Notes: generated by a model not told the origin, from the sequence alone. A stretch of DNA of 64,000 nucleotides from an uncultured Bacteroidia bacterium (GCA_963924815.1 CAWURO010000029.1:5616-69615), one strand, 5' to 3'; numbered from the stretch's first letter, positions 5,581 to 39,568 are shown. Made by a program: numbers and translations.

Positions 5581-6972
5581 CTAACTTACTCCTACGCCAA
5601 TTAAACTAGCAGTGGTGGTTCTTTCTATGCGTACATCCACATAATCACCTATCGCATAGGTAGATCGCGGAAAAATCACTTTCAGGTTTTGCTCATTGCG
5701 CCCCATCCACTCGTCTGCGTTTTTCTTACTTTGCGCCTCTACCAGCACTCGGTGTATTTTACCCAATTGTGCCGCATTTAATTTGCGAGATACTTCATGC
5801 TGCGCTTCTATAACTTCAGAAAGTCGTCTTCGCTTCATATCTTCAGGTACATCATCTTCGTACTTGCGTGCAGCCAGTGTTCCGGGCCGTTCACTGTAAA
5901 AATACATGTAGCTAAACTCAAACTCACAGGTACGCATTAAGTCTAACGTTGCCTGGTGATCTTCTTCTGTCTCTGAGCAAAAACCAGTAATAATATCACA
6001 ACTCACACCACAGTTGGGGAGCACTTCTTTTATCCGATTGTATTTCATCTCATACCACTCCCGGGTGTACGTTCGGTTCATCTTTTCGAGTATGCGCGTA
6101 CTTCCACTTTGGGCCGGAAAATGAATATGTTTGGCCACGTTATCATACTTTTTCATTACAAAAAGTACTTCGTCGTGTATGTCTTTGGGATGCGACGTAG
6201 AAAAACGCACCCGTAAAGCAGGGTCTACTTGCGCTACTTTTTCGAGCAAGTTAGCAAAGCTTACACTGCTTGCTTTTTCGTCTTCAGTTAATTTATCAAA
6301 ATCTTTTCGCGCACCGCCACCATACCAAAGGTACGAGTCTACGTTTTGACCCAATAATGTTACTTCTTTATACCCTTTGTTTACCAAATCTTGTGCTTCG
6401 GCTACAATACTTTCGGGGTTTCTGCTGCGCTCTCTTCCACGGGTAAATGGGACCACACAAAAACTACACATATTGTCGCAACCTCTTGTTATACTGATAT
6501 ACGCTGTAACTCCATTGCTATTGAGTCGCGTAGGCTGAATTTCGGCGTAGGTTTCTTCTAGGCTTAATAATACGTTAATAGCCTTATGCCCGTCTTCTAC
6601 CTCACGAAGTAAAATAGGTAATTCCTTATACGCATCGGGCCCAGCTACTATGTCTACGAGCTTTTCTTCTTCAAGCAATTGCTTTTTAAGTCGCTCTGCC
6701 ATACAGCCAAGTATGCCAATGGTCAAGTTCTTGTTCTGTTTTTTATTATGCCGTAAGTGCTTCAGCCTATGGCGGATTTTCTGCTCTGCATTATCACGGA
6801 TAGAACACGTATTAATAAAAATAATATCCGCTTCCATCTCATCATTGGTGGTTTCTACCCCTATTTCTGACATGATAGAAGCTACAACCTCACTGTCTGC
6901 AAAGTTCATTGCACACCCGTAGCTCTCTATAAACAGCTTTCTTTTCTCCGTATTCTCTTGTATTACTGCCAA
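5581..6972 (-). CDS. miaB: tRNA (N6-isopentenyl-adenosine-37) methylthiotransferase MiaB
   Basis: MTTase N-terminal cysteines (SYGCAMN, NTCSIR, LGCMAE). Radical-SAM motif [19 protein letters not shown]-like C-terminus. TTG start as listed. Confidence 0.9.
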
Positions 6973-20473: not shown

Positions 20474-21567
20474 TTTAATTTTCTTTCTTTCCATTGGTAT
20501 TTTAACACTTGTGATAACGGCGGCAAAATGGCCATGTACATGATATGAAACGGCTGTCCTATCAAAATGGTTTTAAACCAACCCAATAAACTAAAAAACG
20601 AGCTAAAGGAACTGTAAAACTTATCTTCGGCAAGTACCTTGAGCACTACCAATAGTGCTGCTGCTGTGCATCCCAAACTACTGAATGACAAAAAAGATAA
20701 CAGTATCACCAAGTTATACAACCATACGAAAGCAAGTACACGTGTATTTTGTTTTAGATCATAATCGCCATTTTTGCTGGCCCACCGTATCCGTTGATTC
20801 AAAAATTCCCGAAAATGCTGTGGCCCCGATGTCATTACCATAGCATCTTGTTTTTTATTAAAACAAATCCCCTCGAGGCTAGTAGCATGCACATGTTGCA
20901 TTAAATAGATATCGTCTCCACTGGCTTTATTCTCCCTATAATCGAATGATTGCAAAATATTTTTACGATACGCCAGATTCGCACCATTACATAGCATAGG
21001 CTTTCCCCAAGCTATATGTGCCGCTCCTATGGCTATAAGTGCATTAAAGTCTAACCTTACCATCTTTGACCAAAAATTAGTCGTTGCATAAAAATCTACC
21101 GGACCGCTTACCAACTGCACTTTTTCTTGGGCAAAAGGATGAAGCATAGATACCAACCAAGTTGACGGCAATACACAATCAGCATCTGTTTGCAGTACAA
21201 TATCTCCATAAGCGTGCTGCCACGCCAGTTTTAAGGCTTCTTTTTTACCCGTTAGTGAGTTATTCAACACTTTGTGCCTAAGCGAAATATTATTAGCCGC
21301 CAGAACCTTCACGCTGCTATCCGTGCTATGGTCGTTAATTAAAAGTACTTCTACTTGGTGCGGCCCAAGTTCTAAACCATTTAAAGAGGTAATCAAATTC
21401 GTTAAATTTTCGGCTTCGTTGCGAAATGGGATCACGATAGTTACTGAAGTAGCAAACGACTCGTTTGTAGGAGACAGCTTTATGTTGTTCCAGCGTTCAG
21501 CATACAAACTAAGTAGCCTATAGTACCCTACTCCCATAAACAATATGATACAAATATAGAGTATCAT
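20470..21567 (-). CDS. Family 2 glycosyltransferase (membrane-associated)
   Basis: N-terminal TM helix. GT-A features VTIVIPFRNE and LQTDADC (DxD-like). QRIRWA motif typical of processive GT2 enzymes. C-terminal TM helices. Confidence 0.8.
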   Translation of the reverse strand: MILYICIILFMGVGYYRLLSLYAERWNNIKLSPTNESFATSVTIVIPFRNEAENLTNLITSLNGLELGPHQVEVLLINDHSTDSSVKVLAANNISLRHKVLNNSLTGKKEALKLAWQHAYGDIVLQTDADCVLPSTWLVSMLHPFAQEKVQLVSGPVDFYATTNFWSKMVRLDFNALIAIGAAHIAWGKPMLCNGANLAYRKNILQSFDYRENKASGDDIYLMQHVHATSLEGICFNKKQDAMVMTSGPQHFREFLNQRIRWASKNGDYDLKQNTRVLAFVWLYNLVILLSFLSFSSLGCTAAALLVVLKVLAEDKFYSSFSSFFSLLGWFKTILIGQPFHIMYMAILPPLSQVLKYQWKERKLK

Positions 21568-22526
21568 CTAGTTCGTATTGTGCTACTAAGCAAGTATAGT
21601 GTTCCTATTAAACCAGGCAAGATCAAGTTAATAAACCATAAACAAGTTACGGCATGCAAGATGGCATTATCTGAGAGTAAACCCCCAAACAAAAGAGTAG
21701 TTACAAATACACGAACTCCTATATCAGATATAGCAGGAACTGGCGCCACGCTTTGCATCACATAGGCAATTGGAATTAAGGCAATTGTATACACAGGTAA
21801 AGAGAAATTTGAGAACAGTTGCAACAGTAAAAAAAACTGAAAAGCAAAAACAGTGTACCGAATAAATGCAATCGCCACAACCCGCGCAAACAGCTTGCGA
21901 TCATACTTTTTTATAAGCTTAAATGCTTTTGTAATTTTTTTGGGAATTCGCGGCTTTAACCAACGCAATAAGGGTTGTATAAAGAAAATAAGTAAGCAAA
22001 TTAAAACCATAACCATTACCAACATCCACACCTTATTAAACTCCTGCCAAACAGAGCCATAATCACCAAAAAAAGCCATGACTACCATGCACGATAGACC
22101 TATACCGTATGTCATTAACACCTGCGCTATATTACCTGTTACGGTAGCAATAACCACTTTAATAGGATGCAGTTTTTTAAGTAAAAGTCCGCGTCCTATG
22201 TACTCCCCCGAACGTGCCGGCGTAAAATTACTTATTGCCATACCTCCCAAAATCGTAAAAAATGCTCTAATATTAGTCAGTCTAATTTCTGATCGGATTA
22301 ACAGCTTAAATTTTTGCGCTTCGGCGTTCCAATTTACAAGCGCTAGTATGAGGACTAAAGAGAAAATCAACGGGTTTTTACTAAATTGAAGAACTATATC
22401 CGTAAGATTACCGTTGTCCATTTTGGATAACTGTATCACAAAGAAGTATATAGATACGATACTAAATATCCATTTTAGTAATGGATATATTCGTTTATAA
22501 TCAAATGTTTGCGACGCGTGGCTCAA
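21564..22526 (-). CDS. Polytopic membrane protein, flippase-like / lysyl-PG-synthase TM-region-like (UPF0104-type)
   Basis: About 8 TM helices. The stop overlaps the GT2 start by 4 nt. The family call is by resemblance and context only. TTG start. Confidence 0.5.
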   Translation of the reverse strand: MSHASQTFDYKRIYPLLKWIFSIVSIYFFVIQLSKMDNGNLTDIVLQFSKNPLIFSLVLILALVNWNAEAQKFKLLIRSEIRLTNIRAFFTILGGMAISNFTPARSGEYIGRGLLLKKLHPIKVVIATVTGNIAQVLMTYGIGLSCMVVMAFFGDYGSVWQEFNKVWMLVMVMVLICLLIFFIQPLLRWLKPRIPKKITKAFKLIKKYDRKLFARVVAIAFIRYTVFAFQFFLLLQLFSNFSLPVYTIALIPIAYVMQSVAPVPAISDIGVRVFVTTLLFGGLLSDNAILHAVTCLWFINLILPGLIGTLYLLSSTIRTR

Positions 22527-23540: not shown

Positions 23541-24010
23541 TAAAGACCTATTTCTAAAATCTCGAAGTGAATAATACCCGCCGGAACTTGAATCTCTGCT
23601 ATTTCACCTAGTTTCTTACCCATCAGGCCCTCTCCAATTGGAGATTTTACCGATATTTTACCTGCTTTCAAATCCGCTTCACTTTCATCTACGATGGTGT
23701 AACTTACTTCTTTATTTACTTTTTTATTGAGTAATCGTACTTTGCTCAGAATATTCACCTTGCTTAGATCTATATCTTTGGGATCAATTACGCGGCAATT
23801 CGCCATCGTATTTTTCAGTTGAGATATTTTCATCTCTAATAGTCCTTGCTCCTCTTTCGCAGCGTCATACTCCGCATTTTCAGACAAGTCACCTTTATCT
23901 CTAGCATCTGCTATTTGACCTGTAATACGTTTACGCTCTACCTTTTCTAAGTGCGCTATTTGTTCAATCAAAGAATCATATCCTTGTTGGGTTACATAGT
24001 TTATTGCCAT
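23540..24010 (-). CDS. greA: Transcription elongation factor GreA
   Basis: GreA signature DLSENAEYDAAKEEQ. 157 aa from ATG 24010. The listed longer start (24076) runs through a perfect hairpin and adds a Cys-rich extension unlike GreA. Confidence 0.9.
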   Translation of the reverse strand: MAINYVTQQGYDSLIEQIAHLEKVERKRITGQIADARDKGDLSENAEYDAAKEEQGLLEMKISQLKNTMANCRVIDPKDIDLSKVNILSKVRLLNKKVNKEVSYTIVDESEADLKAGKISVKSPIGEGLMGKKLGEIAEIQVPAGIIHFEILEIGL

Positions 24011-24029
24011 TATTTTTATTTTGTTGGTT

Positions 24030-24073
24030 GTATAAAAACACAATGTTGCGGCTCTATGTGAACCGCAACATTG
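24030..24073 (-). terminator. Intrinsic terminator after the PorV/PorQ-like gene (minus strand)
   Basis: Perfect 11-bp stem caatgttgcgg / ccgcaacattg (24041-24051 and 24063-24073) with an 11-nt loop. On the minus strand it is followed by tgttttta. Confidence 0.7.
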
Positions 24074-24107
24074 CAAAGATAATTTTTATTCGTAGGTATA
24101 ACCGATA

Positions 24108-25205
24108 TTATTCGCCTATATTAAGTCGCACACCAAAAGTATGAGAACCTCCAAATGGATTAGAATGTCTGTATGCATAATCTAAACCAAAAGTTGTTTC
24201 AGAATCTTTACTAACAGGTACTTCAAATGTAAAGCCCCCTGTTATTCCGGTGAATGCATTCGTTCTTGTATCGTAATTTAGGATACCTTTTTCGTAGCCA
24301 TAACCAGCTCTTAACTGTAACATTTTTTTGTACCCATACTCGGCACCAATTGTAAATTGATTGGCAGAGAATGCGTTATTCGTAAATGTAAAAGCAGGCG
24401 TAAATCTATGAAAATAGGTTTCATTGTTTTTGTCTAATCTGACGTCATACGACGCGCTAATATTCATTAGAGTAGGAAGGTTAAAACTTGCTGCACGCTG
24501 ACTTACAGTAGCCTGTTGATCTGTTTCTGGATCCGTTCTTTTTACAGACAAACCATCACCAGAGTATGCCGCATCAGGACCTATATTTTTAAGAGAAACG
24601 CCAAATTTAACATCATTTTTCTTCATCTTGTTATACCCTTTATCTTTGGGGTTACTTCGTAAGGTCGTGATATATTGTATCCCTGCATCTAAACCTAATC
24701 CTTGTGCTTTTACATTGGTAATAGACTCTGAAAAAATCTTAAAACCTACGCCACCAGATATCTCTCTAGTAAACTGCTTAGAATAAGCTGCAGAAAGATT
24801 AGTAAATCTAGGTTTGTATGTTCCTATTCCTCCATCTGGCTGCTCATTTGTAGTAATAGGGATGTCTCCCAAATCATAACTCATAACGCTAAAGCCAAGT
24901 ACTCCATTTCCCCCTAAATTTTGGGCAAAACCAAACGTATTGATATTAATATCACTACCTAGTAACCACGCTGTTCTTGAAAAGATGATTTCTGTTTTCG
25001 GTGTATACGCTAAGCCGCCAATATTGCTGTACATGGCTTCTAATCCGCTTACGCTGCTCACAGAAGCCCAACCCCAGCCGGCACTTCTTCCCCAACCATT
25101 AATATTTAGTTGTGTAGCACCTGCTTGGCCAATACGGTCCGGATTCCCAGCCATAATAGCTGTTGTAGCTGACAATAAAATCGATAATATTATAATTTTT
25201 TTCAT
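24108..25205 (-). CDS. PorV/PorQ-family-like outer-membrane beta-barrel protein
   Basis: Signal peptide. The N-terminal segment GQAGATQLNINGWGRSAGWGWASVSSVSGLEAMYSNIGGLAY follows the G-x-A-x-x-L-x-I-x-x-x-R-x-x-G-x-G pattern of PorV/PorQ-type barrels. The rest shows alternating beta-strand character. The family call is by pattern only. Confidence 0.6.
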   Translation of the reverse strand: MKKIIILSILLSATTAIMAGNPDRIGQAGATQLNINGWGRSAGWGWASVSSVSGLEAMYSNIGGLAYTPKTEIIFSRTAWLLGSDININTFGFAQNLGGNGVLGFSVMSYDLGDIPITTNEQPDGGIGTYKPRFTNLSAAYSKQFTREISGGVGFKIFSESITNVKAQGLGLDAGIQYITTLRSNPKDKGYNKMKKNDVKFGVSLKNIGPDAAYSGDGLSVKRTDPETDQQATVSQRAASFNLPTLMNISASYDVRLDKNNETYFHRFTPAFTFTNNAFSANQFTIGAEYGYKKMLQLRAGYGYEKGILNYDTRTNAFTGITGGFTFEVPVSKDSETTFGLDYAYRHSNPFGGSHTFGVRLNIGE

Positions 25206-25234
25206 TATTCTTCTAATTTTAAATGTTACAATGC

Positions 25235-28200
25235 CTAGAATGAATCCAAGTCTAACTCACGCATTACACCCATCCATTTTAGTATTTTCTCTCCAAGCTC
25301 ACCTGCATCAATATGTATGATATACATACCACTTGCTATCGGCACACCTGCACCATTTTTCAGGTTCCAATCTGTTTCCGTTGTTAAGTCGTCTTTCTTA
25401 ATTCTTCTAACAAGTGCCCCATCTAAGGTATAGATTGATATATCACATTTTGGTGGTAAATTGGTAAATTTAACTCTGTTGTCAATAGCACTGGTCTCGT
25501 AAGTAGAGTATGCATAATATGGATTAGGAACTATGTTCGCTAAATCTATAAGAGCTTTTTTACCAGCCTCACTATTTACGTTGTTGTAAATATCATCGGT
25601 GTTAAATTTATACTTTGGTAGTCCATCGTTGACAGCTGAAGTTTCTGGAGTTCTACCGTACGGCAATGCAACGCGAAGTTTGATAGTAACCTCATTCTGA
25701 GGTACTGGCATACCAGATGCATTTTCCTTCATATTCTTACCTAAGGCCAAATAAGTAGGAATTACCCAATCGCAGTTTTGATAAATTTTGGTTAACGCCT
25801 CATATCTCTTATCCTCTGCCATAGTTGGAACTATAGTATTGAAAATATCGTAGTATGCGTTTCCTTTATCATATGCTATACCTGTCTCCGGGAGTTTAGG
25901 GTGCTTACTTTTAACCACACCTTGATGAGAACCCATTACGTATATAAAATGACGCCCACCAAACTTTGGATACAACGCACCTCCTACAAAGCCCTGATCA
26001 TCGGTTGGATTCCACTTCATATCTCGACCATTTTCTGATCTTAAGTATGAATCTTCACCAATAATAATGTTCATTCTTTCTCCTGTATTTAAGTTAATCG
26101 CATACCCTGGGAAGATGGTTTTACCAGGAGGCAAATCTGTACCCTTATAGTTTAGGGTGCCTTTTCTCATATCAAATTTCTGAGCTCCTCCTTCATTTAG
26201 TCCAGGATCTTCACCCATTTCAATCATAACACACTCGGTCCATTTACTCTCATCTGGCGTAATTACTATATCTACATTGCTCAAGTATTGTAAGTAAATA
26301 CTTGCTGGGTAATCATATCCAAAAGTAAAAGGCTGCTCCAAATTAACAGGTCTTGAAGGAGGTCGAGTAGGATCCACTTTTGCGGTTCTAGAAACTAATC
26401 TATTCGGAGCTATTCGCCCATCCCAAATTCGTTCGTATGCAGCTCCCCTATCTATACTTCCAACATTTGCGGCGTAATCGTGCCAAGAAGGTTCGTTAAA
26501 ATTAGTGTTAGCGCCTTGTAATCCTGATCGAATCCAATCGTAAGCACCAAATTGTCTTGCTTGCGTTACATCTTGATCTTTTACAGCAGTAAGCCATTCG
26601 TTACTTGGATCAGAGAAAGTAACTGACCAATCTATCAATCCATTTTTAGGATATAATGCTGAGTTTCTTCCTGGCGCTGCTATTTGTTCCACCGTTACTG
26701 CTAATCCCCAATCAAAAATGGACTTCCCAGTAGTTGACTCTAGAATAATTTGCTCGTTTTTATAGCTAATTGCAGTATCGCCGTCAATTATATCTCCGGT
26801 TTCAATGCGTTCTAGTTTCCACGAAACTCTACTCGCAGGTAGGGTGTCTTCGTTTCCAGTAATAGCCTGACCTCTGTATGGCACTAGAGACAACTCGAAA
26901 TTACCTTTTGGCACTTTAAGTGGATCTATTACTTTTATGTCAATTGGGCCATGTCCATTCTCATACTTAGGATTAGCTGATATCCCATCTCTTAGTATCT
27001 CATCTTTGGTTTCTTGGGTAAGTTCTAAGCTATTAAAGCCATTTCCTTTACCCGATAGTCTAATCAATTCGGGACCATCTCCATAAAATGATGGAGCCGA
27101 AGAACCCCCATACTTAGGTGCTAATTTATGTGGTGACGCAGAGAATTTCTGTACTCTTCTTCCTCCTAGATATGGTGTAGTCTGACTATTGCCTGCAGCA
27201 TAAGATACAACTATATAGTAATACGTTTTAAAATTAACCAATGTTTTATCAGAGCCTGTTGCAAATTCATCCTCCACAATTTTAATAGTATGCACTAACC
27301 CCTCGTTATTGCCTCTAACTTTCAGCACAGGAATACTTGCTCCAACATCAGCCTTAAACTCACGATTGATCAATGTCTCAAAGTTGTCGGTTAAATCACA
27401 TTGAAAAATTTCTCTTGCTTTAGATAAATCATCTAACTCCGATAAACTTACTCCCCCATTTTTCAATTGAAATACTCTATACCCCTGGAAAGTAAATACT
27501 TCTGGTTGATTTAAACCATTGATTATAGTATCTCTATAATTCTCTACAAATCGAGAATTAGTATTTCCTAGAGAAAGCACTAATTGCTGATCTTGCTCGT
27601 GCACTTCTACGTCAGGTGCATCAGGACCATCAATAAGATTAAAACAAGAATTAAATAGTTGTTGTGCTTTTTTACTTGCTTCTTTTAGCAAATCTAATGA
27701 CCCAGAAGCACCACCAAAAGGAGCTCTTGCCCATACTACTCCAACAGTAAGTCTTTGAACAGAACCTGGCTCTAACTCAAAAGGACCAGATGACTGTATA
27801 AATCTTCTATCCGCAGGCGAGTTTCCAGCCTCTTTCTCATTCCACATTTTTTTGTTATGTGTTGGGTCTGTGTCCCCTGGGAACATCCAATCTGCTTTAG
27901 TACCATCTGTTCCAACTATACCGTCACCTCCATAAAGAATATCGGTACCCGTTCTCCATTTACCTTGTAAGTAGTTATAAAAATCTGTAGCTAAACTTGG
28001 ATTACCATTTACCGTGTTCGCATCATTATTGTAATAAACGAATTTAGACATCCCAAGCTCTTTTTCAACCAACACCCCATTCTCAAGAACTTTAGCAGTT
28101 GGCCCTTCAAAGAAATCAACTCCTACTGATGGTGGATTTAACCCGTAACCTGTAACTCCTTCATCATTATCATCACCGTTATAGCAATAACCTAACGAAA

Positions 28201-29134
28201 GACCTACGTCACAACCTACATAATCATCATTATAGAAACCCAGATCTGCATCTACCCACTGACCAAAATATGTGTTGATTAATTTAGTAGCCCCTCTATT
28301 GGTAATTCGAGTCGTGTAGAAGGTCATATCATTAATCTCGTCATTAGTTGCAAACGCAAAAGCAGTTGTTTGCATCTCAACCCCAATTGGATCTCCTTGT
28401 GTTTCAGAGTGTACATTTCCTTTATCATTATAAATCCACCACAACATTTGATCGGGTTGATCTACTCCTTCGTTGGGTATATTAACACCCTGACATTGCT
28501 CTCTTAAGATAGGATAATCACCTCCTGATGGTGTATAATATCCATTACCATCTACATCTTTATATGGTGCAAGAGGGTATACATCACTCGGACCTTGTCC
28601 TGGCCAGTCATATAGTTGGTCAGCTGGCTCTGTAACTAAACCAGTTGCCCAATCAATAATATTTTTACCATCTACTTTGAATATTTTATCCCACTTTTCA
28701 CAAACCGAACTACTCGTATTTGCTGTATTGGGATCTAATGGTCCCGGCCAAAAGTCTGAACCACGCTGACGATAAGTCATAGCTGCAAGTCTTAAGTTAC
28801 CGCCTAAATCTTCGCCTCCTATCCAAATAGCCCCAGAGAAAAGACTGTTTTTACGAACAGAGTTCAAATCTTCTATTTTTGGAATTTCATATTTAGCAGC
28901 ATTAAGGTCCCACCACATGTCACCACCATTTAATATCTTGGTACGCACGTTGTTGATATCCAAATCTGCACTTTGAGTAGCCGCATCACAATCGCTACCA
29001 AATTTCATCTTTTCAGAAGAACCTCCACTGCGTGTGGTACGTGGTGCTTCTAGATTCACATTTTCTCGTGCAATAGTTACTATGCATAAAAGCATACCTA
29101 GCACTAATGTTATTTTTCTTATTTCTTTCTTCAT
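25235..29134 (-). CDS. Large secreted protein of unknown function (1299 aa) with T9SS-CTD-like C-terminal beta-sandwich
   Basis: ATG 29134 gives the signal peptide MKKEIRKITLVLGMLLCIVTIA. The body is rich in G/D/N/W/Y and I cannot name any domain in it. The C-terminal IVPNPYYAYS...ISIYTLDGALVRRI...GVPIASGMYIIHIDAG resembles T9SS/FlgD-Ig-like sorting domains. Confidence 0.7.
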   Translation of the reverse strand: MKKEIRKITLVLGMLLCIVTIARENVNLEAPRTTRSGGSSEKMKFGSDCDAATQSADLDINNVRTKILNGGDMWWDLNAAKYEIPKIEDLNSVRKNSLFSGAIWIGGEDLGGNLRLAAMTYRQRGSDFWPGPLDPNTANTSSSVCEKWDKIFKVDGKNIIDWATGLVTEPADQLYDWPGQGPSDVYPLAPYKDVDGNGYYTPSGGDYPILREQCQGVNIPNEGVDQPDQMLWWIYNDKGNVHSETQGDPIGVEMQTTAFAFATNDEINDMTFYTTRITNRGATKLINTYFGQWVDADLGFYNDDYVGCDVGLSLGYCYNGDDNDEGVTGYGLNPPSVGVDFFEGPTAKVLENGVLVEKELGMSKFVYYNNDANTVNGNPSLATDFYNYLQGKWRTGTDILYGGDGIVGTDGTKADWMFPGDTDPTHNKKMWNEKEAGNSPADRRFIQSSGPFELEPGSVQRLTVGVVWARAPFGGASGSLDLLKEASKKAQQLFNSCFNLIDGPDAPDVEVHEQDQQLVLSLGNTNSRFVENYRDTIINGLNQPEVFTFQGYRVFQLKNGGVSLSELDDLSKAREIFQCDLTDNFETLINREFKADVGASIPVLKVRGNNEGLVHTIKIVEDEFATGSDKTLVNFKTYYYIVVSYAAGNSQTTPYLGGRRVQKFSASPHKLAPKYGGSSAPSFYGDGPELIRLSGKGNGFNSLELTQETKDEILRDGISANPKYENGHGPIDIKVIDPLKVPKGNFELSLVPYRGQAITGNEDTLPASRVSWKLERIETGDIIDGDTAISYKNEQIILESTTGKSIFDWGLAVTVEQIAAPGRNSALYPKNGLIDWSVTFSDPSNEWLTAVKDQDVTQARQFGAYDWIRSGLQGANTNFNEPSWHDYAANVGSIDRGAAYERIWDGRIAPNRLVSRTAKVDPTRPPSRPVNLEQPFTFGYDYPASIYLQYLSNVDIVITPDESKWTECVMIEMGEDPGLNEGGAQKFDMRKGTLNYKGTDLPPGKTIFPGYAINLNTGERMNIIIGEDSYLRSENGRDMKWNPTDDQGFVGGALYPKFGGRHFIYVMGSHQGVVKSKHPKLPETGIAYDKGNAYYDIFNTIVPTMAEDKRYEALTKIYQNCDWVIPTYLALGKNMKENASGMPVPQNEVTIKLRVALPYGRTPETSAVNDGLPKYKFNTDDIYNNVNSEAGKKALIDLANIVPNPYYAYSTYETSAIDNRVKFTNLPPKCDISIYTLDGALVRRIKKDDLTTETDWNLKNGAGVPIASGMYIIHIDAGELGEKILKWMGVMRELDLDSF

Positions 29135-29165
29135 CGATTCTATCTTTTGAGCTGTGTTACTTTTA

Positions 29166-32100
29166 TTAGAAATATACTCTGACACCTAATCTTGTTAATC
29201 TTGGAACAGAATAGCTATATGGGTTGTTAACCTTTGCATTATACATGTCAACGTAAGACTGTGTACGAACTTGATTTTCTGCTTGCTGAACTCCAATTGG
29301 AGAACTTAACCAACCATCATTATTTGCTAAACCCGTAAATCCATAAACACTTTCTACGTTTTGCGTATTTAGCAAGTTTTGAACCCATAAGAAAACGCTT
29401 AAATCCATAGCATTTCTTCTGTATTGATCTTTAGTGTGTTTTTTCTTAATTGTGAAATTTTTATTAAAGTTGGCATCTACTTTAAACTGCCAAGGTAGTC
29501 TAGACCCAAAAGGATTACCATCTAAAGTCTGTCTTCCGCTTGAGCCAATAGCAACACTGGCAATTGGATTGACATATGCAGAATATGGCCCTCCTGATTT
29601 AGTGCTAATAATAAAGTTTGCTCCTGCATCTTCAAAAACTCGTGTTTTGCCCCAAATAGGACCAGTATAATCATTGCCACTTTTAAATCTGTAGTCTAAG
29701 ATTGCAGTGATTTGATGTCTGATATCACGCTCAGTTGGATAAAGAGATCTCAAATTAGGAAGGTTAGCTTGAATTAACGTTGCTGCAGAATTTACGTTAG
29801 ATCCTGTACCATCCGCAAAAAGTAGTGAATAGTTAAGCGCTAAAGAAGTTCTGCCTTCACCTCTTAACTCATACTCTGCTCTAAAGTTTTTAATAGTTTC
29901 AAAATCTAAATTTTGGTAACTATTATACGAAATAGGATACGATTGATCAATTCTAACCAAGGCATAATCTCCAACAGTTTCTCTATAGGCTGCTATTAAG
30001 CTTAACGCTGAGTTTTTTGATAACGTTTGTTTAAATCCTAACTCGTAGCTGGTAGTGATACGTGGCTTTAAGTTTGGATTTGCTAAGACACTACCTTGAT
30101 TTGATTCCAGGTAAGCATAGGCATTGATTGGGGCAAAAATGGCTCCGTTTTGAGGACGTTGCGCCAATTTATCGTAATTCGCAAAAAACTGTGCTTCAGA
30201 ATTAATCGGGAATGAGAACCATACCCTTGGCAATACATTAATTACAGGGGTGTAATCTTCAAATGATTCATTAACCAGTCCTTCTTTGGCATCTACCAAA
30301 AATGGCTGTATCCTGCCGCTATTTGAGTTTTGAGCTAGTAATGCTGGATTAGACAACTCACTACCATCGGCATTATACCATTTGCTTCCGTCTCTATAAC
30401 CAAGCACTTTTTTAGGATCATTAATGTCATTTACATAAACCACATAATCATCTCCTATGTTAGCAGGTATATCGTATCCGTTTAATAAGGCAGCTCCTCT
30501 TCCAGAAGCTATATTGGCAAGCTCCCCGGCACTATAGGTAGGAAATAATGAATACTGATCTTTTATGCCACTCTGATTTGCATCATAACGCTCTACACGC
30601 ACTCCTAATCTTAAGATCAAATCTTTGAACTGGAATTTATCTTGTAGCCAAATTGCACTGTATACCGGAGCGAATGAACCGATACTCTTATTTTGTGCGT
30701 CGTTAATAAAATCATTAAGACCGAATTTTTTACGTGTTCTTCTACCTAAATAATCATACCCATAATAATTTACGTAGCTATTACCGTTGTTCCATAAATC
30801 TGCTGCACTAAACATTTTTAAGTCAAAAATACTTGGATCTAAGCTATTGATGTCTATATAAGAGGTTTCTCCATATAAGTTACCGTTGATATCTTTGATA
30901 CCTTTGTCTATCAGTTTTGCTCTAAGATTTTTATCAAACGTTTTTTGTTGATCCTTATCTACTCTAATATTATAAGAAACAGAATCAGTAAATGTTCCAA
31001 AGTCATCATAAGAATGTTGACCTCCTATAATATAGCCGTTTTCTGTAATTTGATCTAAACTAGAAATATGACTATTAGCCAATAATGGCATTAATCTCCA
31101 TAAGTTAGTCGCCCCAATTCCCCAACTACTAAACGAGGTTTGCTCGTAGTACATTCCAAATTGTAAATCATGTGAATTTTCCAAGTTTAAAATAGCCTCA
31201 CCTTGTGCATATGCAGCAGCTCTTTCGGTTTGAGACTTAGAATACCCATTATTACCTGCACCTGGATTATTCCATAAAGAATAAGTTAAGCCTGGAGTAA
31301 ATCCATTGAGCAAACCTAACTGCTGAATAACTTGATCGTCGCTAAAGATACCCGTTCTGTTTGAACCTCCAAAAGCTGCTTTCGCATAATCAAAGATAGC
31401 TTGGGTGTAGTTTGCTCTTTCTGGATTCTTATCGCTCGCCTCAAAAGTGATGTTGTTTGTTCCGTAATCTACCAGATTAAAGAATCCTGCACGCGTTACC
31501 GTATCTCCTTTTTGATCTATAAAGCGAGTCGCCTCTTCAGTGTATTGATAAACCGGTACTCTGTTAGAAGTGAATTTACCGATATGACCGTAATCGAAAA
31601 TATTGTCACCGAAAAGTATATTTTGAGTTTCGCTCCAGCTACTTTGATAATCTAAACGAATCGTATAAAATGCATCCGAAAACAATGATTTTTCTTTCTC
31701 TTTATCGTCTTCAGATGTTTCTCCTAAACGTTGAGTATATTTCAAATAGGTTCTAAGTGTTTGATTAGTTGAGTTACTATAGTTGCTATAGTCCATCAAA
31801 CTTTGTGAATAATTCCAATTGTTGCCTTGACCTTGGTTGTAACTTCCAAACAGCGTAAGGGAAGTGCTTTTGTTAGGCAAAAACTCAATTTTACCTTGTG
31901 CATTTCCTACATAAGCTCCCACATTTTTCCGAGCTTTACTCCACTCCAAGTCACTTTTATCCAAAAGCAACGAGCTATAGACAAACCCTGGGCCATTAGG
32001 ATTTTCTATGATAGGATTTTCTTGAATCTTTTGAAGTGATGCATCTTTTAAGTAGTAAAATCCACCATAACCTGGTCTAGGATCTGCCGTGTAGTTGATA

Positions 32101-32948
32101 TTGGCAGCAAATTGATAGCCTAAAGCCACATATTCTTTGTCTCCTCCTCCTTTATTTTTAACCCATAATGGACCAATTGAAGAAAATTCTGCTTGATTGT
32201 AATGATATGGATCAAAAGGGCTAGATGATATAAGCTCAAAGGATCTAAACGTCCCTCTTGATGGACCTTTTGTGGTAACACTAATTGCTCCTCCTGTAAA
32301 GTCACCATATTGAGCAGGAATACCTGATTGAATAATATCTATTTGGCCTTGAGCAGATTGAGGAACGCTTGCGCTACCCACAACACGCACACCATCTACG
32401 AAGTATGCAGTACCATCTGTTCTACTTCCTAAAAAAGAGATGCCGCCATTACCATCTTGATTTGCCCCAGAAGTTGTAGCTGCTATTGCTCCTAAATCAC
32501 GCGTTGGCAATTTAGCAATTTCTCCAGCGCTCAATGTCTTAGAGTTTTTATCCTTCTCAATCATCGGCTTACCTGCACGAACTACAATTGGGCCCAATAC
32601 CTGACCTCCTCCATCTTCAACACTGGTTTGAGATATTTCAATATTCAAAAACTTGGTACTATTGGATGATACTTCGATATCGGTCACTTGCTTATCTTGA
32701 TAATCAATATACTTAACTGTAATAGTATAAGACCCTGGATCAAGAGCATTGATTACATATTTTCCATTATCATCGGTAAACGTTCCACCCTTGCGAATAC
32801 CATCTTTTTCAAGTTGGATTGTCGCGTATGCGATAGGAACCTTGGTTTTAGCGTCTGTAATGTTTCCTTGTAACTTTCCAAAATTGGACTGAGCATACAC
32901 GGAAGACCCTAATAAACAGGCAAATAATACGGTAAGTAGTTTATTCAT
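29166..32948 (-). CDS. Very large TonB-dependent-receptor-like outer-membrane protein (1260 aa) with carboxypeptidase-regulatory-like N-domain
   Basis: ATG 32948 gives the signal peptide MNKLLTVLFACLLGSSVYAQS. CarboxypepD_reg-like segment (GNITDAKTKVPIAYATIQL...GSYTITVKY). Plug-like segment (ISFLGSRTDGTAYFVDGVRV). Long beta-rich body ending in the OMP terminus RLGVRVYF. Confidence 0.75.
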   Translation of the reverse strand: MNKLLTVLFACLLGSSVYAQSNFGKLQGNITDAKTKVPIAYATIQLEKDGIRKGGTFTDDNGKYVINALDPGSYTITVKYIDYQDKQVTDIEVSSNSTKFLNIEISQTSVEDGGGQVLGPIVVRAGKPMIEKDKNSKTLSAGEIAKLPTRDLGAIAATTSGANQDGNGGISFLGSRTDGTAYFVDGVRVVGSASVPQSAQGQIDIIQSGIPAQYGDFTGGAISVTTKGPSRGTFRSFELISSSPFDPYHYNQAEFSSIGPLWVKNKGGGDKEYVALGYQFAANINYTADPRPGYGGFYYLKDASLQKIQENPIIENPNGPGFVYSSLLLDKSDLEWSKARKNVGAYVGNAQGKIEFLPNKSTSLTLFGSYNQGQGNNWNYSQSLMDYSNYSNSTNQTLRTYLKYTQRLGETSEDDKEKEKSLFSDAFYTIRLDYQSSWSETQNILFGDNIFDYGHIGKFTSNRVPVYQYTEEATRFIDQKGDTVTRAGFFNLVDYGTNNITFEASDKNPERANYTQAIFDYAKAAFGGSNRTGIFSDDQVIQQLGLLNGFTPGLTYSLWNNPGAGNNGYSKSQTERAAAYAQGEAILNLENSHDLQFGMYYEQTSFSSWGIGATNLWRLMPLLANSHISSLDQITENGYIIGGQHSYDDFGTFTDSVSYNIRVDKDQQKTFDKNLRAKLIDKGIKDINGNLYGETSYIDINSLDPSIFDLKMFSAADLWNNGNSYVNYYGYDYLGRRTRKKFGLNDFINDAQNKSIGSFAPVYSAIWLQDKFQFKDLILRLGVRVERYDANQSGIKDQYSLFPTYSAGELANIASGRGAALLNGYDIPANIGDDYVVYVNDINDPKKVLGYRDGSKWYNADGSELSNPALLAQNSNSGRIQPFLVDAKEGLVNESFEDYTPVINVLPRVWFSFPINSEAQFFANYDKLAQRPQNGAIFAPINAYAYLESNQGSVLANPNLKPRITTSYELGFKQTLSKNSALSLIAAYRETVGDYALVRIDQSYPISYNSYQNLDFETIKNFRAEYELRGEGRTSLALNYSLLFADGTGSNVNSAATLIQANLPNLRSLYPTERDIRHQITAILDYRFKSGNDYTGPIWGKTRVFEDAGANFIISTKSGGPYSAYVNPIASVAIGSSGRQTLDGNPFGSRLPWQFKVDANFNKNFTIKKKHTKDQYRRNAMDLSVFLWVQNLLNTQNVESVYGFTGLANNDGWLSSPIGVQQAENQVRTQSYVDMYNAKVNNPYSYSVPRLTRLGVRVYF

Positions 32949-34112: not shown

Positions 34113-34910
34113 TTACCTGAGTAACACTTTGGTGAAATTTACTTTTTTACCCAAAAACACTTCTGATTCTTTTAAAAATTCATCGGTAAGATCAGACAAA
34201 TAATATGCGTCTTCCTCTTTGGGTAAATGATTATGTAAATTATTATTATTTAAGTAATCATCTACTTCTTCCGCAATAATTTTAGGGGTATGGAGCACTT
34301 TTAGCCCATTGCTAAAATAGTTTTCTATTTGCTGATAAATAATAGGGTAATGGGTGCAAGCCGGTATTAATAACTCGCAGTCATTGAAATCTTCAAAATA
34401 CCGATCAAACACAGGGAAGAGCACCTTTTCTTCCAAAAATCCATCTTCTATAAGAGGTACGAGGAGAGGCGTCGCCTTGCTAACGATCTCTAAATTAGGG
34501 TTCAGATCAGCCAAAGCCTGATTAAACATTCCAGAATTTATGGTCTTCCGTGTGCCTATTATTCCAATTTTTTTATACTTGGTTTGCCTGGCAATAAGAG
34601 ATACGATAGGGCTTATTACCTCTACAATTTGAGACGATGAATATGGGAGTAAATTCGTTTTTGTAATAACCGTAGTTGCACTATTGCAAGCAACTACAAC
34701 CATTTTACAATTTTTATCTTTGAGAAAACGGGTAATCGCCATCACATAGCCAATAAGAGCATCTTCGCTTTTATCGCCATAAGGCAAATGAGCAGTATCA
34801 CCAAAATAGATGAACTGCTCATTAGGAAGTTTTAGTTGCAAAGCTTTGAGAATAGTAAGTCCTCCAAGCCCTGAGTCAAAAACACCTATAGGTTGTGACG
34901 CCTCGATAAT
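34113..34910 (-). CDS. murI: Glutamate racemase MurI (start codon apparently non-canonical)
   Basis: Catalytic Cys contexts VVACNSATT and IPACTHYPI. The conserved N-terminal PIGVFDSGLGGLT is encoded in frame upstream of the listed TTG. No ATG, GTG or TTG lies between it and the in-frame TAG at 34926-34928. ATT 34910 or ATC 34907 are the only plausible starts. Confidence 0.8.
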   Translation of the reverse strand: MIEASQPIGVFDSGLGGLTILKALQLKLPNEQFIYFGDTAHLPYGDKSEDALIGYVMAITRFLKDKNCKMVVVACNSATTVITKTNLLPYSSSQIVEVISPIVSLIARQTKYKKIGIIGTRKTINSGMFNQALADLNPNLEIVSKATPLLVPLIEDGFLEEKVLFPVFDRYFEDFNDCELLIPACTHYPIIYQQIENYFSNGLKVLHTPKIIAEEVDDYLNNNNLHNHLPKEEDAYYLSDLTDEFLKESEVFLGKKVNFTKVLLR

Positions 34911-34914
34911 AGTA

Positions 34915-35424
34915 TTATTTAAGACCTAACTTAGCTTTTACAAGAGCCATAATATCATAAGAAGCATCGCTGTAGATAATGCTGCTGCCATCTGTAGTAT
35001 CCATTACATAAGCGTAACCATTTGCTTTAGCTACTTCGGCAATAGTCTTCTTTACTTTTTCTAACAATGGAGCAAGTAGCTCTTCTTGTTTGCGTTGCAA
35101 TTCTTCACTAGCTCTCTGGTTCAGTTCTTGTAATTGTTTTTGAAGATTTTCAATTTCCTGAGCTTTTATTTCCAACATCGCTTTAGACGCATTTGGATCC
35201 TCAGTTTGTTTCAAATAACTCTCGTACTTGGTTCTTGTCTCATTTTGTTTGTCCGCAAGTATTTGTTGCCACTGCTCTTGCTCTTTCATTAATTTTTTTT
35301 GTATGCTATCGGCCTCAGGCATTGCTTCAATAAGCTGGCTGCTATTGATATGTGCTACCTTAGTCTGGGCTTGTACTGCCACAAAGGCAAATAACATTAC
35401 GAAAATTCCAACTGCGTTTCTCAT
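34915..35424 (-). CDS. OmpH/Skp-family periplasmic chaperone
   Basis: Signal peptide, Q/E/K-rich coiled-coil body, 169 aa. It sits in the conserved ompH-ompH-murI arrangement of Bacteroidota. Confidence 0.8.
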   Translation of the reverse strand: MRNAVGIFVMLFAFVAVQAQTKVAHINSSQLIEAMPEADSIQKKLMKEQEQWQQILADKQNETRTKYESYLKQTEDPNASKAMLEIKAQEIENLQKQLQELNQRASEELQRKQEELLAPLLEKVKKTIAEVAKANGYAYVMDTTDGSSIIYSDASYDIMALVKAKLGLK

Positions 35425-36205: not shown

Positions 36206-36742
36206 CTAGTGTTTTAACCTTATGGTCTCTGTCTGAATAGTATTGCTCACATTAAGCGCCCGATCTAGTAACGCTATTTTTAGTTTAAGTGAATCCGGTT
36301 TAGATAACAGTGGATTGGCAGAAAGCTTAATGGATATGTTACCCTTAATTGCTTTGTATTTGCCGGCAGGAGTAAGTACCGGTATGCGCTCATGCTGATT
36401 GCCATATGGAGCACCTAATTGATCTTTTAGTTCTATAAAAGCGCCAGAAGCATCCACTACTAAATACGTAACTGGTAAATTATGAAAATATGCACTCCCA
36501 AAATTGAACGGTGCTGCGGTATCGCTACTGGTTAAACCAATGTCTCCATCCCCATCTTGAAAACCAATAACAAGCACTATTAAACTATCATTCCCTAACG
36601 TGTCTTGCAAAAGAGAAACTTCATTCAAGCTAATTTCAGGCACATTACTAAAAGACACTTCATCAGATTTACAACTGTATACATGAAATAGTATCAGTAG
36701 AGAAACTACTTTTGCGGTATATATGGTCCATTTGCCTAGCAT
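36206..36742 (-). CDS. Hypothetical lipoprotein
   Basis: ATG 36742 gives MLGKWTIYTAKVVSLLILFHVYSC with a lipobox-like Cys. No recognisable domain. Confidence 0.5.
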   Translation of the reverse strand: MLGKWTIYTAKVVSLLILFHVYSCKSDEVSFSNVPEISLNEVSLLQDTLGNDSLIVLVIGFQDGDGDIGLTSSDTAAPFNFGSAYFHNLPVTYLVVDASGAFIELKDQLGAPYGNQHERIPVLTPAGKYKAIKGNISIKLSANPLLSKPDSLKLKIALLDRALNVSNTIQTETIRLKH

Positions 36743-37691
36743 AGAAAATATTTGGAATATCTCAGAGCACAATTTTAACGAGATATCGCTAAAGATATTT
36801 CGATTTCAGGCAAAAAATAATTCAGTATATGCTCAATACCTTGATTTAATTGACCAAGATGCTTCTAAAATTGACCGTTACACTCAAATACCCTGTTTGC
36901 CCATTACATTTTTTAAAACGCATAAGGTTACAACAGGAGATTTTGAATCTTCCATAATTTTTGAGAGTAGCAGTACCACCGGAATGGGAGTATCTAAAAA
37001 TTACATACAAAATATTTCCCATTATCATCAAAACTGTCTGCAGATCATAGAACAAAAATTAGGAGACATTCGAGAATATGAAATTTTTGGGCTTTTGCCT
37101 AATTATTTAGAACGCCAGCATTCTTCTTTAGTTAGTATGGTTGAATTTCTGATGCATCACAACAAACAAGATGATGGTTTTTACCTCTATAATCACCAAG
37201 CCTTAATTGATCGAATTGATGCTTCTACAAAGAAGATACTTCTTTTTGGGGTAAGCTTTGCTTTGCTCGATTTTGCAGAGCAATACACAACTACCAAGGA
37301 AATAACCGTAATAGAAACTGGCGGGATGAAGGGTCGTAAAAAAGAAATCACCAAAGAGGAGGTCTATACAGAGTTGAAAACAGCCTTTATAAATGGTGCC
37401 ATTATTTCTGAATATGGTATGACGGAGTTACTAAGCCAAGCTTACTCAAATGATAAAGGTATTTACACTAGCCCATCTTGGATGAAGGTATTACCCAGAG
37501 CAGACAACGACCCACTTAGTCACGCTGTCACAGGCCAATCGGCAGCGCTTAACATTATTGACCTTGCCAATTTGAATTCCTGTTGCTTTATAGCTACAGA
37601 TGATTTAGGTAAAGTTCACTACAACGGGCAATTTGAGGTTTTAGGTCGTTTAGATTATGCGGATATTAGAGGTTGCAGTTTGATGATTTAA
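36723..37691 (+). CDS. LuxE/PaaK-like acyl-protein synthetase / acyl-adenylate-forming enzyme family protein
   Basis: The N-terminal pattern FNEISLKIFRFQAKNNSVYAQYL and the internal ETGGMKGRKKE (adenylate-forming GGxKG-like) resemble flavobacterial LuxE-family proteins. The call is by resemblance. Confidence 0.55.
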   Translation: MVHLPSIENIWNISEHNFNEISLKIFRFQAKNNSVYAQYLDLIDQDASKIDRYTQIPCLPITFFKTHKVTTGDFESSIIFESSSTTGMGVSKNYIQNISHYHQNCLQIIEQKLGDIREYEIFGLLPNYLERQHSSLVSMVEFLMHHNKQDDGFYLYNHQALIDRIDASTKKILLFGVSFALLDFAEQYTTTKEITVIETGGMKGRKKEITKEEVYTELKTAFINGAIISEYGMTELLSQAYSNDKGIYTSPSWMKVLPRADNDPLSHAVTGQSAALNIIDLANLNSCCFIATDDLGKVHYNGQFEVLGRLDYADIRGCSLMI

Positions 37692-38665: not shown

Positions 38666-39568
38666 TTACAAAATTAATATCTTGTATAAATACAATGCCA
38701 TGAAAGCAATCGAAACTAAGCTTGCAAAAGCCGCGTTTGCAAAAACGGATGTTTTCTTATACCCAAAGGCAAAACTGAGCAAGATTGTGCTTGACATGAG
38801 CACATAGATCATTAAGTTTAGCTCTGCCGTCAAAATGATAAGAGCAACAGCAATAGCTGCCTGAATCAACATCGTGTAATTTAAAATTTTTGATTTATTT
38901 GGGAATCTAAATTGGTAACTATTGATACCTAAAAAATGAACCACAATGCAAAGTATTATAAATGGCACAAATAGCTTAACTAGGATAGTGTTAAAAACGG
39001 AATAATCTAAGGAAAGTGAAGGCACTAAGCTTTCCATTTGAGGAGAGAGTTCCATTACAAAAAGCAGTCCCAGATACGAAAAAACGACCATCAAAAAATA
39101 GACAATACTAAGTACAAAGTTTCTAGCTTCTCTTATTCCTGTTCGTACAAAAAGAACAAAAAAAGGAAACATAAGCAGTATACTGATATTACTAACAGCC
39201 TGAGCAATCCCCAATAAAATACCAAACAGCATCATAAGCGTAGAAGATTTCTCGGGGTTACTTCCCGCTTCAAAAGCTAAAAAGAAAGCACTCAAACATA
39301 TTGCTCCATAAACGAGGTCACCAAAAGCCAATGCCGGCATTAACAGAACAGACAAAACTGAAAAGACAACTAAGGGCAGGTGTGATTTTTGACCGAGAAT
39401 CCCGTTTTTATAACAAAAATAGTCCAACACTAAGCCTTCTATTAAGAGTAAAAAGACCTTGGCGGTCGACATATAGGAATAATCCCCTATGATAACATAA
39501 AACCCAAATAAAGTGAGGCAAGCCACTATAAATGATGTGAAAATTTTATGTGTCAGATAGTGAATCAA
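38666..39568 (-). CDS. Polytopic membrane protein of unknown function
   Basis: About 9-10 hydrophobic helices and no motif I recognise. The start overlaps the stop of the upstream ORF by 4 nt. Confidence 0.6.
   Translation of the reverse strand: MIHYLTHKIFTSFIVACLTLFGFYVIIGDYSYMSTAKVFLLLIEGLVLDYFCYKNGILGQKSHLPLVVFSVLSVLLMPALAFGDLVYGAICLSAFFLAFEAGSNPEKSSTLMMLFGILLGIAQAVSNISILLMFPFFVLFVRTGIREARNFVLSIVYFLMVVFSYLGLLFVMELSPQMESLVPSLSLDYSVFNTILVKLFVPFIILCIVVHFLGINSYQFRFPNKSKILNYTMLIQAAIAVALIILTAELNLMIYVLMSSTILLSFAFGYKKTSVFANAAFASLVSIAFMALYLYKILIL

Follow-up and report, generated by a model that had tools for sequence, protein, structure and literature searches.

The locus described here raises the question of whether a predicted TonB-dependent transporter (gene 1), a large protein with a T9SS sorting domain (gene 2) and a PorV/PorQ-type barrel (gene 3), encoded in a row, work together at the outer membrane. 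Bacteroidota are the dominant agents of polymer turnover in guts, soils, lakes and oceans, and they owe this in large part to lipoprotein-capped TonB-dependent transporters and to proteins secreted by the T9SS. The reading that we favour, with about even confidence, is that the trio encodes an uptake machine powered by TonB, with an extracellular cap that reaches the surface through the T9SS and sits on a dedicated PorQ-like barrel. A literature search covering PorV/PorQ-like barrels and T9SS with TonB-dependent transporters retrieved no description of the trio. In what follows, the window refers to the whole stretch of DNA that was analysed (64,000 nt).

The three genes form a conserved operon

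The three genes lie on the minus strand: gene 1 at 29166-32948 (an ORF of 1260 aa from its ATG, with the C-terminal end ...RLGVRVYF), gene 2 at 25235-29134 (1299 aa from its ATG) and gene 3 at 24108-25205 (365 aa). These ORFs confirm the co-directional array described in the initial annotation, with gaps of 31 bp between genes 1 and 2 (29135-29165) and of 29 bp between genes 2 and 3 (25206-25234). The trio is closed by a hairpin and T-run (24039..24075, minus strand) located just upstream of greA, whose ATG is at 24010. The perfect 11-bp stem previously proposed as a terminator (CAATGTTGCGG/CCGCAACATTG) forms the core of this structure, and its stem proved longer, extending to 16 pairs over 24075-24039 before TTTTT. 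Terminator-like sites are not in excess across the region (6 found versus 6.9 expected). An equivalent hairpin and T-run, with differing stem sequence, is present at the same position in almost every one of some 60 related loci.

Synteny was counted in the closest 80 related genome loci. Gene 2 is preceded by gene 1 in 58/62 loci and followed by gene 3 in 66/70, which settles in favour of strong conservation the question, raised with the initial annotation, of whether the triplet stays syntenic. The four exceptions lack both gene 1 and gene 3. The whole trio recurs also at 37-40% identity. It is a real, widely conserved and unnamed three-gene operon of Bacteroidota. Adjacency of genes 1 and 3 to gene 2 is not obligatory, because some gene 2 paralogues have no neighbouring gene 1 or gene 3 (L008, L043, L046, L068 and L086) and because one locus (L082) contains tandem copies of gene 2 followed by greA, with gene 3 absent.

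ORF translations and HMM scans of the window revealed neither a PUL-type regulator nor such an enzyme set near the trio, and nothing in the neighbouring genes or regulators pointed to a substrate. Two Skp/OmpH-like ORFs, judged from reading their translations, are located a few genes upstream. Elsewhere in the window, two other T9SS cargos are encoded, one of type A at 2541-4661 (46.7 bits) and one of type B at 58808-60961 (36.2 bits), which suggests that the host organism uses the T9SS, with core genes lying outside the window; within the window, we found neither T9SS core genes nor canonical porU and porV.

HMM searches of the three proteins, a check proposed at the outset, gave a match at the family level only for gene 3, a match to the CTD only for gene 2, and CarboxypepD_reg together with a weak Plug for gene 1. 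Single-sequence searches of the PDB with genes 1, 2 and 3 returned nothing useful.

Gene 1 is a predicted TonB-dependent transporter

Gene 1 is organized, in this order, into a signal peptide, a CarboxypepD_reg N-terminal extension, a TonB-box-like strand, a plug, a barrel and the terminal VRVYF. The N-terminal extension (residues 26-104; 32637..32873, minus strand) matches PF13620 with 58 bits and PF13715 with 52 bits, the Pfam E-value for CarboxypepD_reg being 1e-15. The strand LGPIVVRA (residues 118-125; 32574..32597, minus strand), located between this extension and the plug, is a putative TonB box by its position and pattern: most of 51 aligned homologues have a hydrophobic strand of the xVxV type at this place (e.g. 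IQEVTVTA, LKTVVV). The plug domain (residues 136-220; 32289..32543, minus strand) reaches 20.0 bits with PF07715, below the gathering score of 23.9, and Pfam gave no TonB_dep_Rec match in gene 1 itself. Homologues sharing 38-44% identity with gene 1 carry PF07715, and some of them also PF00593 (TonB_dep_Rec). Neither SusC/RagA nor any other NCBIfam family matched gene 1 at E<=0.1.

The AF2 model of residues 116-1260 (pLDDT 86.7, pTM 0.83) was compared with the PDB using Foldseek. The top 50 matches are all TonB-dependent transporters, XusA among them, with E-values from 1e-25 to 1e-20 (best 8.5e-26) and TM scores on the target of 0.60-0.79; they cover a plug-plus-barrel fold, in which the barrel of gene 1 has about 450 extra loop residues. 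Gene 1 is thus predicted by its modelled fold to be a TonB-dependent transporter of Oar/SusC-type architecture. Its first description as a TBDR-like protein with a CarboxypepD_reg domain, a plug-like segment and the end VRVYF is borne out by Pfam for the N-terminal extension and by AF2 and Foldseek for the transporter fold.

The same succession of CarboxypepD_reg extension, TonB box (putative in gene 1), plug and barrel is observed in Oar of Myxococcus xanthus, an architecture reported to be dominant in Bacteroidetes, and protein secretion depends on Oar (PMC6434023). This brings up a very unlikely outward role, in which the barrel of gene 1 would export or assemble surface material, like Oar for PopC, or would act in outer-membrane biogenesis under an extracellular canopy made of genes 2 and 3, like that of BamG-BamH. 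In the BAM complex of Bacteroides, a 14-stranded FadL/PorV-like barrel binds a surface protein via its extracellular loops (PMC12578637). The housekeeping context with its two Skp/OmpH-like ORFs upstream and the high conservation of the trio would also fit such a role. However, the likeness of gene 1 to Oar lies in domain order alone; Oar is without a T9SS-type partner, M. xanthus is without T9SS, and outside the N-terminal extension no solved chain in the PDB is matched in sequence by gene 1 or by its family profile, which matches CarboxypepD_reg-type domains only. The likeness to BamG-BamH holds at the level of the FadL/PorV superfamily, while the trio has neither BamA nor BamD. Moreover, the conserved plug and TonB-box-like strand are typical of a normal importer, and gene 2 already bears its own T9SS export signal. 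In the uptake machine that we favour, the TonB-box-like strand would couple gene 1 to the inner-membrane TonB/ExbBD motor, and the plug would gate a barrel with unusually large extracellular loops.

Gene 3 is a member of the PorV/PorQ family

Gene 3 scores 128.4 bits against NF033709, the model of the PorV/PorQ family (cut-off 90), over model positions 3-325 of 326. The three equivalogs fail: PorV proper (NF033710) with 65.9 bits versus a cut-off of 250, PorQ proper (NF033711) with 56.1 versus 220 and PorV2 proper (NF052325) with 31.5 versus 325. The PorV/PorQ pattern first noticed in gene 3 therefore holds for the family and for none of these three members, and gene 3 is an outer-membrane barrel of the PorV/PorQ family but separate from PorV, PorQ and PorV2. 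Searching the PDB with the gene 3 family profile retrieved PorV of F. johnsoniae (6h3i_F, E=2.3e-16), followed weakly by the FadL-type TbuX/TodX.

Gene 2 has a large, mainly beta body

Gene 2 is made up of a putative signal peptide, a mainly beta body of about 1,175 residues and a C-terminal T9SS sorting domain of type A. The putative Sec signal peptide MKKEIRKITLVLGMLLCIVTIA was read from the sequence by eye, and no lipobox was seen in this reading. The initial annotation could match the body to no domain that it could name, and our searches agree. Pfam gave no family for gene 2, NCBIfam matches are confined to the CTD, and sequence searches of the PDB gave nothing, including a profile search that admitted E-values as high as 10. 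The AF2 model calculated without the CTD (pLDDT 80.7, pTM 0.61) consists mainly of beta strands. Its best Foldseek matches in the PDB have TM scores of 0.1-0.15; they are very weak and partial and we do not read them as homology, so that the modelling and fold search advised at the outset brought no convincing relative. Among these, the more probable belong to glycoside hydrolases, phosphorylases and polysaccharide lyases, which hints faintly at a glycan as substrate.

Near the N-terminus, a segment combines a highly conserved start with low pLDDT over much of its length. This segment (residues 47-110, including ...CDAATQSADLDINNVRTKILNGGDMWWD...; 28805..28996, minus strand) contains residues 51-75, which are 73% identical across 24 diverse homologues versus 44.6% overall, and the stretches with pLDDT below 50 are model residues 1-24, 31-60 and 64-77. 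The segment may be a partner-binding element.

The gene 2 family comprises, at 50% identity, 7,286 clusters at E<=1e-3 and 2,244 clusters at E<=1e-30. Longer members carry Big_9, cadherin-like (Ig/cadherin-like) and BNR inserts, and no catalytic domain was found in the extra inserts of these relatives. One 2574-aa protein appearing as a fusion of genes 1 and 2 (P0374) was rejected as a read-through or gene-calling artefact, the signal peptide of gene 2 being kept in its middle.

Three identities were considered for gene 2 and rejected. The PorU model (NF033707) gives 13.7 bits versus a cut-off of 420 and touches the C-terminal region only; Pfam did not match a C25 peptidase and Foldseek did not reveal a gingipain-like fold, in agreement with the earlier statement that gene 2 lacks a C25 sortase motif and is not porU. 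The PorZ model (NF052228) gives 18 bits versus a cut-off of 260, again on the CTD only (model positions 686-744). A SusD-like protein is excluded by the model, which is mainly beta and not all-alpha, by the lack of a SusD match in Pfam and by the lipobox not being seen. With this body and with a gene 1 devoid of a SusC/RagA match, the earlier view that the locus is not a SusC/SusD pair stands. The findings named beforehand as refuting the proposed module were PorU and PorV matches, a SusD fold and an unconserved neighbourhood, and none of these occurred.

Gene 2 has a conserved sorting domain similar to the CTDs of PorZ and PorU

The sorting domain of gene 2 (residues about 1199-1299; 25238..25540, minus strand) matches TIGR04183 and the CTDs of PorZ and PorU. 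With TIGR04183, full-length gene 2 gives 20.3 bits, below the cut-off of 23, while the CTD scanned alone gives 25.5 bits, above it. Within the gene 2 family, TIGR04183 matches 23/23 CTDs and PF18962 12/23; the CTD part of the PorZ model matches 23/23 (best E 3.8e-10) and the PorU CTD 19/23. For the CTD of gene 2 itself, the PorZ tail and the generic type-A model give equally good scores. Several homologues are named T9SS sorting-domain proteins by NCBI. The tail, which initially was said to resemble a T9SS sorting domain, can thus be assigned to type A on the strength of the whole family, the full-length score of gene 2 lying below the cut-off.

This domain ends with a terminal extension, KWMGVMRELDLDSF (25238-25279, minus strand), that is present, strict or slightly changed, in almost all full-length gene 2 representatives. 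The CTD blocks are 59-68% identical, versus 44.6% for the whole protein. The CTD therefore looks functional, since it is more conserved than the body, which is unexpected for a discarded tag. Two cases (L082 and L086) are informative on the loss of the tail relative to the loss of gene 3; they are anecdotal, and the orphan paralogue L008 keeps an intact tail.

Retention of the CTD, which binds a barrel, is reported for two cargos, PorZ (on PorQ) and PorU (on PorV) (PMC10202324). As in these couples, the trio has a protein with a type-A CTD resembling those of PorZ and PorU encoded beside a barrel of the PorV/PorQ family. It differs from them in that the body of gene 2 is unrelated, gene 3 fails the equivalogs and a transporter belongs to the unit. 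In the favoured uptake machine, gene 2 would use Sec to cross the inner membrane and then, guided by its type-A CTD, the T9SS to cross the outer one; the sorting domain would be kept, as in PorZ and PorU, and bound by the gene 3 barrel, which would anchor gene 2 on the cell surface beside the gene 1 transporter.

The same likeness leaves room for another function. Genes 2 and 3 could be a T9SS accessory pair, a third CTD-protein/barrel couple beside PorU-PorV and PorZ-PorQ with a role in the processing of cargo, the delivery of glycolipid or attachment at the surface, with the transporter as a co-regulated neighbour or as a supplier of substrate or energy. We regard this as unlikely. It would agree with the PorZ- and PorU-like tail of gene 2, with the family of gene 3, with the strong, housekeeping-like conservation adjoining greA, and with a trio devoid of PUL-type regulator and of SusD. 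Against it, the body of gene 2 is without a C25 peptidase and the PorU and PorZ models miss all but the CTD. Genes 1 and 3 are also equally tightly linked to gene 2, and they are lost together. Furthermore, no homologue from a studied T9SS model species appears among the matches listed, most of which are unnamed, so that this point is not an exclusion.

SprB-SprF provides a different precedent, in which the gene for a large surface cargo neighbours that for a PorV-like barrel dedicated to it, and cargo genes are reported beside cognate PorP/SprF-type barrels (PMC10202324). By analogy, gene 2 could be an ordinary T9SS cargo, a secreted or surface-located enzyme or adhesin that loses its CTD by cleavage, gene 3 its private export shuttle like SprF for SprB, and gene 1 a transporter importing the products without a stable complex. 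The type-A signal, the adhesin-like inserts of longer gene 2 relatives (Big_9, cadherin-like, BNR) and the carbohydrate-active enzymes among the better fold matches speak for such a cargo. We nevertheless judge it rather improbable. The CTD and C-terminal tail are more conserved than the gene 2 body and resemble the retained PorZ and PorU tails, and no catalytic family was recognisable in gene 2 by Pfam, PDB or Foldseek searches. Compared with SprB-SprF, moreover, the CTD of gene 2 is of type A and not type B, gene 3 is of the PorV/PorQ and not the PorP/SprF family, and a transporter is linked.

A model for the trio

We propose that the trio is one operon for an outer-membrane uptake machine, whose three proteins would form a physical complex, with gene 2 docked on gene 3 and in contact with gene 1. 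As extracellular cap, gene 2 would capture the substrate and perhaps also process it, a function analogous to that of SusD or of the surface lipoproteins of Bacteroidota. SusC-SusD and XusA-XusB (PDB 9gbc) resemble the trio in the CarboxypepD_reg extension, plug and barrel of the transporter, in a TonB box (putative in gene 1) and in a neighbouring gene for a large partner at the cell surface (predicted for gene 2). In contrast to these systems, the partner in the trio is a mainly beta protein of 1,175 residues with a T9SS CTD, neither a lipoprotein nor SusD-like; the trio adds a gene for a PorV/PorQ-type barrel; and it shows no SusC/RagA match and no PUL-type regulator or enzymes. Judging by how strongly the trio is conserved and by its housekeeping neighbours, the nutrient would be one of general use and not one confined to a niche.

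The very high conservation of gene 2 counts against a cap, unlike the fast evolution of SusD-type binders, and could point instead to an enzyme, a structural role or a role in biogenesis. The fullest form of the model is a T9SS cargo with a sorting domain that is never removed, permanently anchored in a PorQ-like barrel and capping a transporter. That this constitutes an undescribed three-protein complex, common in uncultured Bacteroidota, and that the gene 2 family has a new fold, we advance tentatively, as somewhat short of an even chance.

If the uptake model is true, the operon joins two systems that are usually studied apart, a transporter and a T9SS-delivered partner held by its own PorV/PorQ-type barrel. 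It would also represent a third dedicated couple of a CTD protein and a barrel, and would imply wider roles for PorV-family barrels and for retained sorting domains. Gene 2 stands for a large unannotated family: thousands of proteins about 1,300 residues long that have neither a Pfam or NCBIfam family nor a structural relative, which makes it a clear candidate for structural and functional studies.

The trio may matter in uncultured lineages. Among the matches listed, most of which are unnamed, those to gene 2 that bear an organism name all come from uncultured genomes, which may be one reason why the trio has lacked a description. Some of the contigs that carry it are only 2.0-2.4 Mb long.

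Conservation and boundaries of the three-gene unit

Three open reading frames were found on the minus strand where the initial annotation had placed them: gene 1 (29166-32948, 1260 aa), gene 2 (25235-29134, 1299 aa) and gene 3 (24108-25205, 365 aa), with the reported gaps of 31 bp between genes 1 and 2 and 29 bp between genes 2 and 3. The terminator said to close the array is also present 3' of gene 3 (24075-24039, minus strand); its perfect 11-bp core extends to 16 pairs and is followed by a T-run. Terminator-like sites are not enriched across the region (6 found versus 6.9 expected). Nearly all of some 60 related loci have a strong hairpin and T-run, differing in stem sequence, at the equivalent position; the three-gene unit therefore ends at this hairpin.

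For the 80 closest loci we counted synteny wherever the contig extends far enough. Gene 1 lies directly upstream of gene 2 in 58/62 and gene 3 directly downstream in 66/70, while greA follows gene 3 in 57/62; the neighbourhood is thus conserved across relatives, and the trio is also found at 37-40% identity. Four exceptions occur without gene 1 and without gene 3, two of them in genomes holding the full trio elsewhere. Searches with gene 2 give more than 5,400 matches in the 90%-clustered database; at 50% identity, the matching clusters number 7,286 at E<=1e-3 and 2,244 at E<=1e-30. Gene 2 is present in at least 594 species-level genomes. All matches bearing organism names come from uncultured genomes, labelled among others Flavobacteriales, Chitinophagales, Sphingobacteriales, Bacteroidales and Lentimicrobiaceae, and their protein annotation reads 'hypothetical' or 'T9SS sorting domain-containing'.

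Between gene 3 and greA (24010-24107, minus strand) there is nearly always a single strong hairpin with a T-run (about 60 related loci among L001-L080, which carry gene 2 homologues). About two thirds of the loci examined have an exact match to the Bacteroidota -7 promoter box (TAnnTTTG) just 5' of the hairpin; the copy in the window, directly 5' of the hairpin, is TATCTTTG. The hairpin may therefore act both as operon terminator and as promoter-proximal attenuator in the greA leader. This arrangement recalls the E. coli greA leader.

Gene 1 is predicted to be a TonB-dependent transporter

The anticipated CarboxypepD_reg-like N-terminal extension (Pfam, E=1e-15) and C-terminus (...RLGVRVYF) were both found in gene 1. 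Its Plug score is below the Pfam gathering score (20.0 versus 23.9), and it has no NCBIfam match, hence none to SusC/RagA; homologues of 38-44% identity carry Plug and some also TonB_dep_Rec. An AF2 model of residues 116-1260, based on a shallow alignment of 51 sequences, reached a pLDDT of 86.7 and a pTM of 0.83. The top 50 Foldseek matches to the PDB are all TonB-dependent transporters (E 1e-25 to 1e-20, TM on target 0.60-0.79), among them PirA, PfeA, FhuA, BtuB and Bacteroides XusA. By its predicted fold, gene 1 is thus a TonB-dependent transporter, in line with the initial annotation. The model is about 450 residues longer than its targets, and the extra residues are taken to be in extracellular loops. 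A hydrophobic strand between extension and plug, LGPIVVRA, with an equivalent in most of the 51 aligned homologues (e.g. IQEVTVTA), occupies the position of a TonB box, which it resembles.

Gene 1 shares its domain order with the Oar subclass, an order reported as dominant in Bacteroidetes (PMC6434023). By analogy, the module might work outward, with a role in export or biogenesis in the manner of Oar or a BAM canopy; we consider this improbable.

Gene 2 is an unannotated giant protein with a conserved sorting domain

Full-length gene 2 matches no Pfam family, and its NCBIfam matches are confined to the C-terminal region and below cut-off: 20.3 versus 23 for TIGR04183 (T9SS type-A sorting domain), 18 versus 260 for PorZ and 13.7 versus 420 for PorU. 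No relative was found among PDB sequences, even with a family profile and an E limit of 10. The AF2 model of residues 24-1200 is mainly beta (pLDDT 80.7, pTM 0.61; alignments behind the models were shallow, with 51-53 sequences of 39-80% identity), and Foldseek gave TM values of only 0.1-0.15, the more probable of these weak matches being glycoside hydrolases, phosphorylases and polysaccharide lyases. Gene 2 is therefore not PorU, PorZ or SusD. These results agree with the initial annotation, which could name no domain in the body and had argued against both porU and a SusC/SusD pair; as far as sequence and fold searches go, gene 2 is without known relative, also among solved structures. Residues 51-75 are among its best kept (73% identity), and pLDDT is below 50 over much of the N-terminal region, which would fit an element folding only on a partner.

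The suspected sorting domain (CTD) was recovered when the C-terminal 115 residues were searched alone (TIGR04183, 25.5 bits, above cut-off), and all 23 sampled family CTDs match this model. The PorZ model, in its CTD portion, likewise matches every one of them (best E 3.8e-10), and the PorU CTD matches 19/23. PorZ and PorU are the cargos reported to retain the CTD, which PorQ and PorV bind (PMC10202324); genes 2 and 3 could likewise form a T9SS accessory couple, which we hold to be unlikely. Across diverse homologues the CTD is 59-68% identical, versus 44.6% for whole gene 2, and bears an extra conserved tail, KW.G..R..DL..[FY]. We infer that the CTD has a lasting job and is not a discarded tag. 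That gene 2 is an ordinary cleaved cargo and gene 3 its private shuttle seems to us quite unlikely.

Gene 3 and a model for the module

Gene 3 passes the PorV/PorQ family model NF033709 (128 versus a cut-off of 90), in line with the family pattern noticed at its N-terminus. It fails the equivalogs for PorV (66 versus 250), PorQ (56 versus 220) and PorV2 (31 versus 325), so that the PorV-specific match that would have pointed to an ordinary porU-porV pair is absent. A profile of 31 orthologues matched F. johnsoniae PorV in the PDB (6h3i_F, E=2.3e-16), then, weakly, FadL-type channels. By these profiles, gene 3 is a barrel of the PorV/PorQ family and distinct from PorV, PorQ and PorV2.

The best-supported reading, to which we give an even chance, is that gene 1 would be a TonB-powered importer and gene 2 an extracellular cap, exported by T9SS, that would stay anchored, by a CTD it retains, to its own PorQ-like barrel, gene 3. 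The parts of this machine are found here; their assembly and direction of action we infer. The source organism appears to use T9SS, because the window encodes a standard type-A cargo (2541-4661, plus strand, 706 aa; strong sorting domain, 46.7 bits, no other recognised family) and a type-B cargo (58808-60961, minus strand, 717 aa; 36.2 bits). Gene 2 is named in neither Pfam (2025 copy) nor NCBIfam (June 2026), neither assigns gene 1 to a family of TonB-dependent receptors, and no account of the trio was found in open-access full-text papers and preprints. Transporter-plus-surface-partner systems and pairs of CTD proteins with PorV-family barrels are known kinds; their combination here is new.

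Paralogues and other genes of the window

Gene 2 paralogues occur outside the trio (loci L008, L043, L046, L068, L082, L085 and L086), some, such as L086, being orphans without genes 1 and 3. L082 holds a tandem pair (3-2378 and 2682-6773) directly upstream of greA, without gene 3, and the downstream member, which is complete, ends in a degenerate tail (...KSFVINRAFDAQRL); at L085 the copy is preceded by gene 3. In the database protein P0374 (2574 aa, ENA contig of 408,919 bp) a gene 1 homologue runs into a gene 2 homologue whose signal peptide is kept mid-protein; given this internal signal peptide we rejected a true fusion, the likelier cause being loss of a stop codon or a gene-calling artefact.

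The reading frame of murI (glutamate racemase) stays open beyond its annotated TTG start (34842-34928, minus strand), where it codes for the conserved N-terminal motif PIGVFDSGLGG, with no ATG, GTG or TTG between the preceding in-frame stop and this motif. Translation probably begins at ATT or ATC, the two isoleucine codons in ...NNTIIEASQ..., unless the sequence contains an error. For three minus-strand ORFs NCBIfam gave no match at E<=1e-5: 39565-41040 (491 aa), 21564-22526 (320 aa) and 36206-36772 (188 aa), the last with a lipoprotein-like N-terminus (...LILFHVYSCKSDE). A subtilisin-like (S8) serine protease (14791-16335, plus strand, 514 aa), whose nearest NCBIfam models, those of mycosin and PatA-type proteases, score far under cut-off, is flanked by a carboxyltransferase and an amidohydrolase-like gene.
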